From contig OZ024745.1 in the NCBI GenBank assembly GCA_964016885.1, positions 110,236,001-110,300,000 of the forward strand: a stretch of DNA of 64,000 bases, in the 5' to 3' direction. The notes beneath the pieces are model-generated. The model saw only the letters and a program-made list of their open reading frames with translations. It searched no databases and had not been told where the DNA came from. The stretch's first letter is position 1. Each line of letters begins with the position of its first letter. Origin of the DNA: Eledone cirrhosa. Taxonomy: Eukaryota. Both the position numbers and the translations under genes were made by a program. Shown here piece by piece: positions 35,733 through 62,362 of the stretch.

Positions 35733-36020
35733 TATATATATATATATATATATATATATATATATATATATATATATATATATATATATATATATATATA
35801 TATATATATATATATATATATATATATATATATATATATATATATATATATATATATATATATATATATATATATATATATATATATATATATATATATA
35901 TATATATATATATATATATATATATATATATATATATATATATATATATATATATATATATATATATTATATATATATATATATATATATATATATATAT
36001 ATATATATATATATATATAT
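35733..36020. repeat. Near-pure (TA)n tract, about 290 bp
   Basis: Directly visible. Confidence 0.97.
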
Positions 36021-36335
36021 AATATAAGATCAAAAGATGGTTAAAGGAGTTCCATGTATTTTATTATGCGCATTTCAAAAACAAACATCATCATGCAATA
36101 ATATTTGTGTTTTCATCAGATAAAACAGGAGAACATGATATGAAGGCCAAAAAACACTTGTGGACAGTGCAGTCTTAAATCAACATATTGAAATGCGCAT
36201 AATAAAATACATGGAACTCCTTTAACCATCTTTTGATCTTATATTATGTATACTCCAGTCCTACAAACTGTAGAGTGCTTCTTATCCGATATCTGCATTG
36301 CTTTATTGTACTACAATAAAACTCACCTCCTACAT
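36019..36335. mobile_element. Short PLE-derived element: 60-bp perfect inverted arms, spacer and 3' tail, in (TA)n
   Basis: 36019-36078 is the exact reverse complement of 36188-36247; contains a hammerhead and the TACTC..GAGTGCT tail. Confidence 0.75.
36059..36125 (-). ncRNA. Type I hammerhead ribozyme
   Basis: Minus strand: TTTTAT-CTGATGA-[stem II ACAAATATT/GATGTTTGT]-GAAA-TGCGCA-TA^-ATAAAA; 6-bp stem I, palindromic stem III, AUA site. Confidence 0.8.
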
Positions 36336-36400
36336 ATATATATATATGTGTGTATATATATATATATATACACACACACACATATGTATATATATATATA

Positions 36401-36497
36401 GATGAGGTCATAGCCAGTCAATGGCTATCATCGAAATATATATAGCTGTAAATAAAGGATTATGGGTTCATGCAATTGACTTATGTTTCGTCACTAT
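36401..36497 (+). mobile_element. 5'-truncated PLE end with partial hammerhead
   Basis: GATGA-GGTCATAGCCA-GTCAA-TGGCTATCATC-GAAA-(TA)4-GCTGT; same architecture as 48727-48785. Confidence 0.6.
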
Positions 36498-36676
36498 ATA
36501 AATATATATATATATATATATATATACAGTATTTTCCGTTGTGTTGTAATATAAATATTACACACAGTAGATTATCAGCTCACGTAGAGTTTGCTCGACG
36601 GTTCCAGTTGTAGTTCCAAAAGTAATCCGGAGAAAAATAGAAAGATTTGAATGGATACAGTTTAGTTGAAAGGAAT

Positions 36677-36796
36677 TTATTGACACGTGTTTCTATAACA
36701 GTTACATAACCTAAAACAGCTGCTATCTACAAACTTTTAGTTATGCAGACATTCAATATTTCAATGTTATTATTTACTGTCATTTCATCAGAATAA
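36677..36796 (-). ncRNA. Type I hammerhead ribozyme with large stem II insertion
   Basis: Minus strand: TTATT-CTGATGA-AA-TGACAGT...ACTGTTA-TA-GAAAC-ACGT-GTC^-AATAA; stem I TTATT/AATAA, GUC site. Confidence 0.8.
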
Positions 36797-37680
36797 TATT
36801 ACTGAGGACCTATTTAGTTTTTATAGAGAATATTAGGAGGGAGGGGTGAAGTTGTTAGAAGAATAGTTGAAGGAGTGGTTTTTCGATAGCAGTGAGAATT
36901 CTTGGTGGCAGTGAGTAATTAGATTCCCATCTGTTGTTTTGACATTTTTTATAGAATATATTATTGGTTATTTTTCTAAATCTATAGAAGGATTAGAGAT
37001 AGTAAAGATATGCGTGGTTGGTTTTGTGTTTGCACTTAATTAACATTCAGACTTAAATTTTTCTTTCAAGTGTACGTATCCTTTCACCCACGCATTCACA
37101 CACAAATATATTTGCACACCTCTACAAAATACATATACTCACAATTCACATATTCATACTTACATATATATACACATGCATACACATATATATACACACA
37201 TGTATTCATGTACATACATACGCGCTCATGTGTATACATTTTCATACTCAACTTATCTTTATATACACACGTATAGACACACACATATATACATACATAC
37301 TCTAGTCCATGTGTACACACATACACATACATACACATCCATATACACATATATACATACATATATATATATATATATATATATATATATATATATATAT
37401 ATATATATATAAGCACTTTAATACATGAATACACTTACATCTAACTATACACATCAAACATATATATATATTTACTTATTTATATACATTTTCACATATA
37501 TATACATACTTATGGACGTTTTTAGACACATTCATTATCGCATATTTGTACCTATTCTCATCAACATATCTTTCCATTATTAGTGTGGTAATTTAAGGTT
37601 ATTAATATATGTTGAGAAGAGATTGTTTTTATATTTTTCTAACTAGATTAAGGTTTATATAGTTGGGGGATGTCCCTCTT

Positions 37681-59054: not shown

Positions 59055-59535
59055 TTTTTTTATACCAAACCACATGAAAACACTCTTGGCTCTATGATAC
59101 AAAACTGTTTGTTTTAAAATATTTATATTTATTTAACAATTTTCTATCATAATATTATTTAAGAACCTTTGTTAAGTTACATTCCAAACTCCAACTTACT
59201 ACTGAGAAAGTTGTATTAAATCCTTTGAAATATTTGATTTCGTTGGAAATCCTAAGCAGTATCTTTCATTAGAAATATGGTATTAAAAGTGTTAGCCCTT
59301 TTAATACCAATGCACCTGAGACTGCCTTTGGTTCTAAGATATAAAACTTCATTTTAAAGTATTCATGGTTATAGTTTTATGTAAGAAACGTTGTTAAGTT
59401 ACGTTCCAAACACCCTTCTAATAATAGAAAAAGTCAGTTACTTTATTAAATTCTCCAAATTCTTGATTATCTTTAAAGTTATGTAACACATATATATAGG
59501 ATATTTCATTGAAAATATGCTGATAAAAGAATTAA
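59055..59535. mobile_element. Two tandem, older piggyBac-like MITEs (second family)
   Basis: Decayed TTAA-CCCTTTTRATACCA / TGGTATTAAAAGKG-TTAA ends and similar internal sequence; shorter relative at 55792-55932. Confidence 0.55.
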
Positions 59536-61314
59536 TGTTTTGATATTTTTCCTTTTATAGTCGCTGGGATAAAAAAAAGTATTTTAAAGGTGGTTTGTTA
59601 TTGTTGTTTGGAACAGGTCGGCTCTGATTCAGCAGAACTATAATCGAAAGATGTTCCATCCATGACCACCATGCCTGTTATTTCTTTTTTAGGTATAGTG
59701 ATTCTAGGACTAGGTTATCAAATGTGTTTTAAAGGATGGGTTGTATTATCATATTTGCATCTCATATTTACATCAGCATCTATTTTATACAAAAACATTT
59801 GAAATTTGGCTTAAGTTTATCTATGTAGTATCTACAATATCAACAGCATGGCTGAGGGAGAAACACACTTAGGGGAGTATTTTGTGCACTAAATACAGAT
59901 ATGGATGGGTCTCATGTAAGTAGTATAGTGAGCTAAAAAACATCAATTAACTGAGATTATCTCTGCAATTAAAAGACAAAAATCTTCCACTAGAGGAAGT
60001 TTAAAATCTAAGAACAATAAACAAATTTTGCTTCATTGATATTATTAGAGTTGTCTTCCTTACTTGTTTTTAGATTTGAAACACCCCTGTTAATTACAGA
60101 GTTAATCACAGCAGATCAAAGTTTATATGTACATATATTAAATATGTGCATTATCAACATTGTTTTATTTTTTAACAATAGAGTTCTTTTTTTTTCTTCT
60201 TTAATACCAAAGACCATTTTCCTGACAAAATGTCATATATTACAATATTAAGTGAATCACAAAAGATGCTCAAATTCTTTGCCAATCCACTGCCTGAGCT
60301 CTGTTAATATTATAAATAAATTAACAACCTATGGATATTTGATCCTCAGCGGCACATAGTTCCTTTGAGCAAGACACTTTATTTCACATTGTTCCAGTCC
60401 ACTTAACTGGCAAAAATGAGGTGTATCTGTAATTCGAAGGGCTGGCCTTGTCACATTCTGTGTCACACTGAATATACTTGAGAACTATTTTAAGGGCACA
60501 CATGTCGGTGGAATACTCAACCACTTGAATGTTAATTTACTGTGCAGGATGTTTTGTTGATCAAGTCAAGTGTTCTAGTTGATTTGATCAAATGATTGAG
60601 TGCCAATTTTTGCAATACAAATTCCAACCCAGAGATTAGGAGTTAACTTTACCTTTCATTTTTCATTGTTTGATAAAATAAACTATGGTTATGTGATTAG
60701 AGTGTCTCAAGACAGATTTTATGGGCAAAACCAACTGGCAGAAGACTCAGGGGTGGACGCTGAGCGAGACGTTTGGATAACATCCACGAGCTCAGCTGAT
60801 ATCGGTTGGAGATCCAGCCAGATCAATTAGAGACAGTTGCTTCTGACAGGACCCACTGGAAGGAGTGTTTGAGAACAGTGACCCCACGACCATCTGAAAA
60901 AAAGATGCTTAGGGTGTCAAGGGAAGAAGCTTCACCATTTTATTCAAATTAAATATTTTTGTAGATTTTATATACAATGGTGAAAGGGGGTCCTAGATAA
61001 TGTTTTAAGTGCTTAGGGCTAGATCTCAAAAGGTCTTAATCCAATATCTCTCCACTCCTCTAACCTATTCACAGAAAAATATATGGTATTTGCACCAATG
61101 CTAAAAAATAAATCATTGTTGAAAAGTATGTTATATCAGCAATTACCAAACTCTTTCATAAGAGAAACTATTTTATTTTTTGTCTATTCCTATCTGGGAT
61201 TATTTTTACTCAATGATGACATATTCAGAATGGCCCAATTTGTAGGATTTTACAGAAACTATTTGGCTGACTGATATATACATGTGTGTGTGTGTGTGTG
61301 TGTGTGTATATATT

Positions 61315-61672
61315 ATAGAATAGAAAACGAAAAATCAGTGATGCATCTGAACTCAATTTATTGTGTGTTACAATTGTTTCACCGGCAGACAGCTTAAGAC
61401 GCGATCATTGTGTGGATCTGTCTGATTCTGGGCCCGCAGGTTCGACGGACATGTCTAATGATTTCGGAGCATATTCTCACTGAATCAGACAGATCCACAC
61501 AATGATCGCGTCTCAAGCTGTCCACCGGGGAAACAATTGTAACACACAATAAATTGAATTCAGATACTTCACAGATTTTTCGTTTTCTATTCTATCATAC
61601 TCTGCTCTGTAAGAGCATAGAGTGCTCAATCGGCATACCGCCTATGGAAGCATCTTAGCTACCATCAGACAC
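61315..61672. mobile_element. PLE-derived element: 114-bp inverted arms, decayed hammerhead and 3' tail, in microsatellite
   Basis: 61315-61428 versus 61482-61595 (about 8 mismatches); TGT-CTaATGA...CCGGG-GAAAC-AATT-GTA^-ACA at 61452-61544. Confidence 0.7.
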
Positions 61673-61883
61673 ATATATATATATATATATATATATGCAT
61701 GTATATGTATGCATGTATATATGTATATATATGTATATATGTATGTATATATATATGTATGTATGTATATGTATATATATATGTATATGTATATATATGT
61801 ATGTGTATATATATGTATGTATGTGTATATATATATATGTGTGTATATATATATATATATATATGTATGTATGTATGTATATA

Positions 61884-61952
61884 TATTGGGTCGCCAAGTA
61901 TGAAATTTGTAGACATTTTTTTTCTACAAATTTCATACTTGACGACCCACTA
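61884..61952. mobile_element. Minimal mariner-like MITE made almost entirely of TIRs
   Basis: TGGGTCGCCAAGTATGAAATTTGTAGA / TCTACAAATTTCATACTTGACGACCCA around a short T-rich loop, flanked by TA. Confidence 0.65.
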
Positions 61953-61954
61953 TA

Positions 61955-62362
61955 TATATAAACATTTGCTGAAGAAGTAAATCCTGTTCTGTCGTGAAAA
62001 ACCATTATATTGCAGACTCCTGCAATCGGAATTTGTCGATCTTGGATTTGCAGAAACTTAGCGCTGATGTTGGGTGTTGTATGTGATGTATATTGTGTGA
62101 TATACGATGTAAGTTATATATTTTGCACTCAGCCTCACCGCTATGTCCGGGTCAGTATAAAATCTTTTCCTGGGTCCTGTATTTTCGTTGCTCTAGTGAT
62201 GCGGCTGGACTGCCGACCGCTATATCTGATTTGCTAAGCTGTCTGAACGTAATGTTATTACTCTGGGGTCTTTCCTCATCTGAGTGCTCAAGCTACAGAC
62301 CGATTATGCATTCGTTAGCTTGGCCGTGTTCTAAAGCTTCGTCAATGCTGTACTAAAATTTA
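61955..62362 (+). mobile_element. Probable PLE 3' end with hammerhead-like core and TACTC..GAGTGCT tail
   Basis: CTGAAGA-A-GTAAATCC...GGATTTGC-A-GAAAC; stem III and cleavage site unclear; flanked by (TA)n. Confidence 0.5.

Follow-up and report, generated by a model that had tools for sequence, protein, structure and literature searches.

Penelope-like elements (PLEs) of the Hydra clade are defined by RW(K), DKT, CxCX5C linker, CxxC and CxH motifs, and the clade, its hammerheads, its targeting of (TA)n, its inverted pseudo-long terminal repeats (pseudo-LTRs) and its tails have been described previously (PMC8557442). Palindromic stem III and dimer cleavage (PMC4209133) and the derivation of retrozymes from PLEs (10.64898/2026.07.22.740005) are also known, and the reverse transcriptase (RT) of the anole element Poseidon PAc was reported to use two internal start sites whose spacing equals the tail, with both target strands being cut and extended (PMC11167929). 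The origin of PLE tails and inverted pseudo-LTRs and the RNA element that recruits the RT have been named as open questions (PMC8557442). Here, we analyzed a stretch of 64,000 nucleotides (the window) from Eledone cirrhosa (contig OZ024745.1, positions 110,236,001 to 110,300,000 of the forward strand), which lies in a 3.0-Gb assembly (GCA_964016885.1), and focused on four short elements in it: E1 (36019-36335), E2 (48421-48930), E3 (61315-61672) and E4 (61955-62362). Taking all parts together, we consider it likely that E1, E2 and E3 are truncated Hydra insertions, that E4 is a copy of a tandem unit with the same 3′ end, and that a duplicated hairpin positions the RT at two starts.

All four elements adjoin (TA)n, in agreement with the original prediction, which had been made from the letters of the window; the left flank of E3 is (TG)12(TA)3, and the left (TA) run of E4 comprises only approximately five units. 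The inverted arms, the tail confined to one arm, the palindromic stem III and the AATAAA near the cut site, which had been proposed for three of the elements, were all present in E1-E3. The palindromic stems III of E1, E2 and E3 read ATGCGCAT, ATATATATAT and ACAATTGT, respectively, and AATAAA lies at the cut site or approximately 6 nt past it. Positions are numbered on the whole 64-kb stretch, L-numbers denote loci drawn from the genome, and sites A and B lie before hairpins 1 and 2, respectively. The features are as follows.

36019-36189, minus strand: E1 inverted arm without tail, Hydra family 1, running from site A back to the 5′-end hotspot (-178 from hairpin 1); the parents L151/L152 match it at 92-98%
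36065-36119, minus strand: intact type I hammerhead of E1 (CUGAUGA...GAAA, palindromic stem III, 8-bp stem I), predicted to be cut after 36065
36190-36250, plus strand: E1 direct arm, broken off within the hammerhead (3′ half only)
36251-36279, plus strand: E1 hairpin 1 (UACUC/GAGUG lower stem, UA bulge, CAG/CUG upper stem)
36280-36335, plus strand: remaining E1 tail, stopping at site B, a few nucleotides 5′ of the parent's hairpin 2
48421-48640, minus strand: E2 inverted arm without tail, Hydra family 2, reaching the 5′-end hotspot (-223), inner boundary approximate; it holds an intact hammerhead (48522 to 48476), and the parent L213 matches it at 95-97%
48679-48839, plus strand: E2 direct arm with an intact hammerhead (48732-48780); the inversion junction carries a 21-bp duplication at 48652-48693
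48840-48883, plus strand: E2 hairpin 1 (CGGAG/CUUCG upper stem, UC bulge)
48884-48930, plus strand: remaining E2 tail, up to site B
61315-61481, minus strand: E3 inverted arm without tail, Hydra family 3, reaching the 5′-end hotspot (-167); it holds a degenerate hammerhead (CCGUCGA from 61448 to 61442, GAAA at 61380), and the parent L214 matches it at 83-92%
61482-61597, plus strand: E3 direct arm, containing the 3′ hammerhead half (GAAA at 61530)
61598-61626, plus strand: E3 hairpin 1 (UGCUCU/AGAGCA upper stem, UA bulge)
61627-61672, plus strand: remaining E3 tail, up to site B
61960-62362, plus strand: E4, the 3′ ~400 bp of a 646-bp noncoding head-to-tail unit, without a hammerhead
62259-62288, plus strand: E4 hairpin 1 (UGGGG/CCUCA upper stem, 3-nt bulge)
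36400-36503, plus strand: by sequence reading, an additional E2-like hammerhead fragment without tail, broken off in the core and flanked by (TA)n

Copies that read through beyond the tail (3, 1 and 1 of 30 for E1, E2 and E3, respectively) led to full-length parents, namely L151 and L152 for E1, L213 for E2 and L214 for E3. In L151, an intact open reading frame (ORF) of 775 aa is flanked by E1 pseudo-LTRs, and the ORFs of L213 and L214 are interrupted by frameshifts. The L151 ORF contains the RW, DKT, YRDD, CxCX5C, CxxC and CxH motifs (as LRWIA, SDKT, CNCRIKNKC, CNLC and CLH for all but YRDD), and L152, L213 and L214 are similar (MRWKA and ADKT in L213). Across the families, the proteins share 37-53% amino acid identity. 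An AlphaFold model (mean predicted local distance difference test score of 75) adopts an RT fold whose top Foldseek matches are the DRT2 RT and TERTs (E ~1e-7). A Pfam search of the ORFs matched no family. The C-terminal domain reads IYECKV..YFGST with a strand-strand-helix pattern, and no profile or fold match to it was named GIY-YIG. The single ORF with a telomerase-related RT, the pseudo-LTRs, the 5′ truncation, the inverted 5′ piece (in 12-22 of ~30 copies, depending on the definition used) and the optional tail are those of PLEs, and the inserts at the inversion junctions are copy-specific. As in the Hydra clade, a hammerhead lies in the pseudo-LTR in families 1 and 2, the core of family 3 being degenerate, and a simple repeat lies within 130 nt of 28 of the first 30 motif loci. 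E1-E3 are therefore almost certainly the truncated, 5′-inverted ends (pseudo-LTR plus tail) of three Hydra-clade PLE families, as judged from sequence. The origin from several (TA)n-associated PLE families that had been proposed was thus confirmed for E1-E3, each of which has a parent with a predicted RT-endonuclease ORF; the wording "extreme truncation" suits these three, and "non-autonomous derivative" suits E4 only. We also observed head-to-head full insertions with a tail on both arms (L152:420-933, L213:1682-3724), an exception to the rule of one tail-bearing arm.

The original prediction placed a CUGANGA/GAAA core in all four elements and counted about ten cores in the window. Neither held. 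A strict scan for type I hammerheads found four cores in the window, compared with a mean of 0.05 (maximum 1) in 60 shuffles, and three of the four had a palindromic stem III, compared with none in the shuffles. These cores are one in E1 (minus strand only), one in each arm of E2 and a weak one at 36791 (minus strand); the E3 core is degenerate and that of E4 is spurious. A total of about ten is reached only when half and truncated cores are included (three intact palindromic, one weak and approximately six half or truncated). The E1 and E2 hammerheads have an intact core with stems I-III and are predicted ribozymes. For E3, 45 of 77 matches to a loose pattern have CCGUCGA as the 5′ core, and none has CUGANGA. 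Because a related family (L275) keeps an intact core at the matching position, the E3 ribozyme looks decayed. The core variants U4C and A6C have been described as lowering activity (PMC3088659), and the available passages of that paper do not mention A6U. The activity of the E3 hammerhead is doubtful on this sequence evidence. An Rfam scan of the window gave 350 matches, and the 150 listed were all below threshold, none of them a hammerhead and most of them chance matches between microsatellites and miRNAs.

The large ribozyme population that had been suspected was found. Exact hammerhead-plus-tail patterns matched the genome 4,361 times for E1 and 2,439 times for E2, and a half-core-plus-tail pattern for E3 matched 499 times, with no matches in the controls. 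Among the first 30 hairpin-motif loci, 16 had an intact core, and the cut site lay 49-66 nt upstream in 15 of those 16. Extrapolated from these first 30 matches, all on one contig, the genome would hold ~34,000 (22,000-46,000) predicted ribozyme-bearing ends. Direct arms extend past the hammerhead cut in 26 of 30 E1 copies and 27 of 30 E2 copies, and thus most insertions came from RNA that was uncut at the hammerhead. Hammerhead cleavage was also considered as the origin of the 5′ ends and was rejected, since only 2 of 30 E1 ends and 1 of 30 E2 ends fall within 7 nt of the cut.

E4 differs from the other three. Its unit of 646 bp is very probably noncoding and ribozyme-less: the longest ORF is 56 aa, and no hammerhead fold was found in the unit even with up to two core mismatches. 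The GAAA at 61996-61999 is a change private to the window copy, the same position being CAAA in 70 of 74 copies and GAAA in 1. Among the long copies, 26 of 30 wrap head-to-tail, and the other four start at or near the junction by eye. Like a non-LTR retrozyme, E4 is thus a noncoding head-to-tail unit, but the type I hammerhead in each unit is absent. Since E4 lacks a hammerhead, the feature that unites the four elements is the tail hairpin and not the hammerhead. Several E4 5′ ends lie between positions 540 and 548 of the unit, at the 5′ border of hairpin 1 and hence at site A (L219, L227, L228, L234, L365, L368, L380, L384), as if synthesis from B often halts at A, the sampling being partly biased. 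Additionally, the hairpin families in L260/L259, L273 and L092:2220-2340 are akin to E4 by upstream sequence and may belong to a wider ribozyme-less lineage; no hammerhead was found within 190 nt of the hairpin in L260 and L273.

The four elements might instead be self-standing short non-autonomous families, resembling short interspersed nuclear elements, miniature inverted-repeat transposable elements (MITEs) or retrozymes, that spread as fixed units via their hammerheads. The similarity searches seemed to agree with this, as the best 40 matches per query, the only ones scored out of 659, 1,358, 3,109 and 2,055 candidates for E1-E4, respectively, all ran to approximately the full query length. 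Modal copy lengths also exist, E4 is a genuine noncoding tandem unit, and retrozymes have been reported as pseudo-LTR-derived (10.64898/2026.07.22.740005). However, those matches had been picked for likeness to the query. Tail-only patterns matched the genome 7,773 times (E1) and 3,549 times (E2), and in the first 30 loci of each pattern set, chosen by the 3′ motif, the 3′ end was fixed, whereas the 5′ extents ranged between 5 and at least 1,500 nt, with some entering ORFs. We therefore dropped fixed-length families as a selection effect, and the alternative outcome that had been left open, short fixed boundaries rather than extension into RT ORFs, was not observed: E1-E3 extend into predicted RT-endonuclease ORFs. 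Moreover, junctions vary from copy to copy, neither hairpin 2 nor the upstream CCAAT region is present in short copies, a hammerhead is missing from E4, and most templates were uncut at the hammerhead. Self-standing short families are largely refuted for E1-E3 and are very improbable overall, and we return to truncated Hydra insertions.

The common tail stem-loop that had been predicted was found as TACTCY..GAGTGCT at only four positions of the window (36251, 48840, 61598 and 62259), one in each element. Genome-wide, this motif has 64,253 matches, compared with 1,636 for the reversed pattern (39-fold). It folds into a hairpin with a 5-bp stem, a 2-3-nt bulge led by a pyrimidine and a variable upper stem. 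In 88 non-redundant motifs chosen by sequence only, 155 of 264 upper-stem positions formed Watson-Crick pairs, compared with 84.4+-7.3 after shuffling, and none of 10,000 shuffles reached 155, a test that overstates significance because the motif sequences are related. The best bulge length was 2 nt, giving 155 pairs compared with 75, 47 and 63 at 0, 1 and 3 nt, respectively. At the first position of the upper stem, 29 motifs have C-G and 30 have U-A, and at one position of the lower stem, 28 have A-U and 46 have G-C. A further abundant, AT-rich hammerhead-plus-hairpin group (L247, L252, L261-L263 and others) was the commonest type in the first 30 motif matches.

A second copy of the hairpin (hairpin 2) directly follows the end of the tail in L151, L152 and L214 by script and in L213 and E4 (with a long loop) by eye; where an ORF follows, it stands ~30-65 nt 5′ of the ATG. 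In the leader, the hammerhead comes first, followed by site A and hairpin 1, then by site B and hairpin 2, and finally by the ATG of the predicted RT/endonuclease ORF. In 79 Hydra relatives from marine metagenomes, hammerheads were found in 25 on the plus strand compared with 4 on the minus strand. The strict TACTCY/GAGTGCT form occurred in none of the 79, whose form is GCTC..GAGCACT; the motif was generalized after these data had been seen and was then controlled on the minus strand, ORF windows and shuffles. The leader test took the 36 of the 79 loci whose match started at query residue 5 or earlier and that had at least 170 nt upstream. The hairpin stood 5′ of the ORF in 29 of these 36 leaders, several of which are near-duplicates, with two copies in 17; by comparison, the minus strand had it in 0 of 36, and 2 of 216 windows inside the ORFs had it. 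Published Hydra consensus sequences also hold the hairpin, and the start of Hydra-1_Ajap has two (supplement of PMC8557442); the words "hairpin", "stem-loop", "slippage" and "twin" do not appear in the main text of that paper. A comparison of Rfam with the leader L152:690-1030 gave no match near any gathering score. On these sequence comparisons, the hairpin is a clade-wide duplicated RNA motif.

The hairpins stand next to the ends of insertions. Of the copies that stop before a hairpin, 344 of 345 stop 1-16 nt 5′ of it, mostly 2-9 nt. Site A is where tail-less ends stop, including nearly all inverted arms, and site B is where tail ends stop. The two arms of a copy resemble each other more than arms of different copies, with differences within compared with between copies of 0.67 and 2.4 for E1 (n=43), 0.86 and 2.11 for E2 (n=36) and 2.11 and 2.53 for E3 (n=38). 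Concordance of subfamily variants between the arms was reached in 0 of 10,000 permutations for each of E1-E3, in copies drawn mostly from similarity-selected sets. At the other end, 5′ ends cluster at approximately -175, -227 and -170 from hairpin 1 in E1, E2 and E3, respectively, with 18 of 41, 20 of 45 and 16 of 46 falling within 18 nt. CCAAT lies 33 nt (E1) and 51 nt (E2) upstream of the hotspot. These hotspots may mark the transcription-start limit of the RNA, a reading that we favor slightly. Two further clusters, at -406 (E1) and -435 (E2), were judged to be artefacts of the reference copies (internal duplication and own truncation, respectively) and were excluded from the hotspots.

We provide a putative mechanism for these insertions. 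An element protein would bind each hairpin, its endonuclease would nick (TA)n, and the 3′ end released in this way would prime on a short AT-rich stretch of template immediately 5′ of the hairpin. The RT would often reiterate the first two template bases, in a telomerase-like stutter, and then elongate. Priming at B on one target strand would yield the tail-bearing direct arm, and priming at A on the other strand would yield the tail-less inverted arm; the A-primed and B-primed cDNAs, made from one or two RNA molecules, would then be joined at their 5′ limits. Since both start sites are located in the 5′ leader, copying would often end at the RNA 5′ end, likely the transcription start in the pseudo-LTR, and many cDNAs would run only that far. 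The products would be abundant noncoding inserts of 260-500 bp without hairpin 2, which are probably dead ends. The hammerhead would be dispensable for insertion, and the E4 unit, with both hairpins and neither ORF nor ribozyme, would be mobilized in trans from multimeric or circular RNA. This two-start scheme fits the Poseidon PAc data, because there two internal starts define the tail and the hammerhead is dispensable (PMC11167929). As a tentative extension, to which we give somewhat less than even weight, a clade-wide hairpin pair of identical fold may load two RTs at two starts and so explain the tail, the tail-less inverted pseudo-LTR and trans-mobilization, with telomerase-like repeat addition at initiation creating microsatellites at tens of thousands of places in this genome.

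The same Hydra identity could be combined with another origin of the inverted arm, that is, fold-back self-priming on one cDNA or an antisense template at a palindromic junction, leaving the hairpins another role, for example in ORF translation control or, as DNA, in endonuclease recognition. Several copies do have perfect palindromic junctions centered on CATATG, and self-priming at palindromic junctions has been proposed for rotifer Penelope (PMC3846280). The position of hairpin 2 shortly before the ATG fits translation control, and endonuclease recognition in D. virilis was reported to need tail DNA (cited in PMC11167929). However, fold-back alone leaves unexplained that inverted arms end at A and direct arms at B, each before its own hairpin. 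E4 retains both hairpins without an ORF to translate, and the G-U pairs of the stem fit the RNA sense strand, the minus strand being without the motif. We regard this explanation as unlikely and prefer positioning of the RT at two starts.

Dinucleotide runs stand between the element end and (TA)n; they repeat the element's terminal dinucleotide and are family-specific. (CA)4+ was found at the tail end in 40 of 60 E3 copies compared with 0 of 59 E2 copies (p = 7e-17) and in 5 of 73 E1 copies. (TC)4+ was found in 7 of 59 E2 copies compared with 0 of 133 E1 plus E3 copies (p = 2e-4) and also at some E3 arm ends. No such runs were found at 45 E4 ends. Reiteration of a dinucleotide by the RT at initiation (stutter) is a reasonably likely cause. 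For this one step, the inner (CA)n and (TC)n runs might not be made by the RT but be pre-existing compound microsatellites picked by microhomology or products of replication slippage. Compound microsatellites are frequent around the loci, and a short ACAC at site B of the E3 parent is a possible slippage seed. However, the remainder of a split run was never present at the opposite end of the insertion (0 of 33), and runs in E2 reach 19 units although site B of the parent is without a TC run. The type of run also follows family and end, and the one informative empty-like site (L087 compared with L025) holds (TA)n only. We judge this explanation possible but less probable than stutter. Separately, compound microsatellites are polar, with (TC)n before (TA)n 116 times compared with (GA)n before (TA)n 4 times (loci of this genome, a non-random genome sample).

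Besides the relatedness of the motif sequences and the near-duplicate marine loci, several points weigh against the proposed mechanism and its parts. The role of the hairpin as an RT-positioning element, which is probable in our view, rests on position, duplication and covariation in sequence. An A-C mismatch occurs in the lower stem in 11 of 88 motifs, the first upper pair is absent in approximately one quarter, and the folding signal of individual hairpins is modest (z -0.7 to -2.3). TA microhomology and differences between subfamilies make the exact start points hard to place, and the arm concordance could have arisen instead from later gene conversion or fold-back copying. Two of the three 5′ hotspots fall on a CATATG palindrome, so microhomology could explain those two, and two small-share RNA runs (contigs only) yielded one short contig each, outside the leader, and speak neither for nor against a transcription start. 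The empty-site test was nearly uninformative, with an empty-like homologue for only 5 of 105 insertions, of which one was informative. As to an ORF-bearing partner of E4, a Hydra protein match lay near 4 of 90 E4 loci, and none was shown to be continuous with the unit. Finally, the units of L151, L213 and L214 measure ~3.9, 4.1 and 4.7 kb, microsatellite inserts included, compared with <3 kb in Hydra, the latter being a tendency of the clade and not a strict criterion (PMC8557442).

The window contains further repeats. Positions 37723-38124 and 36527-36900 (both minus strand) hold an endonuclease fragment of an older, separate Hydra-type family (tblastn E 1e-16), and the weak hammerhead-like core at 36791 lies further downstream of it. 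A short, perfect-looking, MITE-like palindrome at 61886-61952 adjoins E4 on its left, a similar one lies beside an E4 copy in L219, and a MITE-like palindromic repeat of ~150-250 bp recurs in the (TA)n runs that hold these elements (e.g., L095, L148, L208). A big inverted repeat occupies 20768-21232 (227-nt arms, 83%, 11-nt spacer), with a half core GAAA-palindrome-AATAAA beside it at 20748 (minus strand). Tandem arrays lie at 38716-39413 (89 bp x 7.9 copies, 98%) and 42210-43118 (44 bp x 20 copies). The output of an inverted-repeat finder on the window was dominated by (TA)n.

Viewed as repeats, E1-E3 add new members to a clade that is already known, and an abundance of ribozymes is expected for Penelope-rich animals. 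In open-licence papers and bioRxiv, excluding Repbase/Dfam notes and subscription journals, we found no prior description of the hairpin pair and its link to both insertion ends, of dinucleotide reiteration at PLE ends or of a ribozyme-less tandem Hydra derivative. A ~30-nt covarying hairpin beside each start makes the origin of tails and inversions testable, as an in vitro assay exists (PMC11167929) and the L151 ORF is intact. The hairpin is also a practical tag, with ~62,000 matches above control in the genome.

Compared with described Hydra elements, the families here share the single ORF with RW(K)/DKT/CxCX5C and a putative C-terminal endonuclease, a canonical hammerhead within the pseudo-LTR, insertion into (TA)n, 5′ truncation, the inverted 5′ piece and the optional tail (PMC8557442). 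They differ in unit length (3.9-4.7 kb versus <3 kb) and tail length (~80-110 nt versus 30-40 bp for PLEs generally) (PMC8557442), in their very high copy number and in the degenerate ribozyme core of one family. Their hammerheads resemble the minimal type I hammerheads of PLEs in the type I core, the short palindromic helix III and the expected action as dimers (PMC4209133), whereas E1 and E2 carry long stem II extensions. E4 resembles non-LTR retrozymes in being noncoding, a few hundred base pairs long, head-to-tail, PLE-related and presumably mobilized in trans (10.64898/2026.07.22.740005, PMC7229834). However, retrozymes have a type I hammerhead in each unit (10.64898/2026.07.22.740005), where E4 has none and has a hairpin pair instead, and E1-E3 are not tandem noncoding units; E4 is thus a ribozyme-less counterpart of retrozymes. 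By analogy, its closest precedent is the non-autonomous Chlamys elements (MRC1), which are also noncoding PLE derivatives with pseudo-LTRs in multicopy head-to-tail arrangement, in a clade mostly without hammerheads (PMC8557442). They belong to another clade, in green algae, and the parts of that paper available to us give 3′ similarity to autonomous families and no defined RNA motif (PMC8557442).

With anole Poseidon PAc, the elements would share two adjacent internal starts, an AT-rich target, cutting and extension of both strands, a dispensable hammerhead and the need for RNA 3′ of the starts (PMC11167929). In Poseidon PAc, the two sites are ~30-40 nt apart in an AC-rich stem-loop within the ORF, and no duplicated binding motif is identified in the portions of that report consulted (PMC11167929), whereas the sites here lie in the leader, each with a covarying hairpin. 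Repeat addition by telomerase and DRT10 likewise involves a related RT fold and a short template copied reiteratively beside a conserved stem-loop (PMC12632851). In those systems, however, the stem-loop is 5′ of the template and stops synthesis (PMC12632851), whereas here the hairpin is 3′ of the start and synthesis would become processive. The comparison is therefore a functional analogy and not membership. If true, reiteration at initiation would tie telomerase's closest eukaryotic relatives to repeat addition and the birth of microsatellites.

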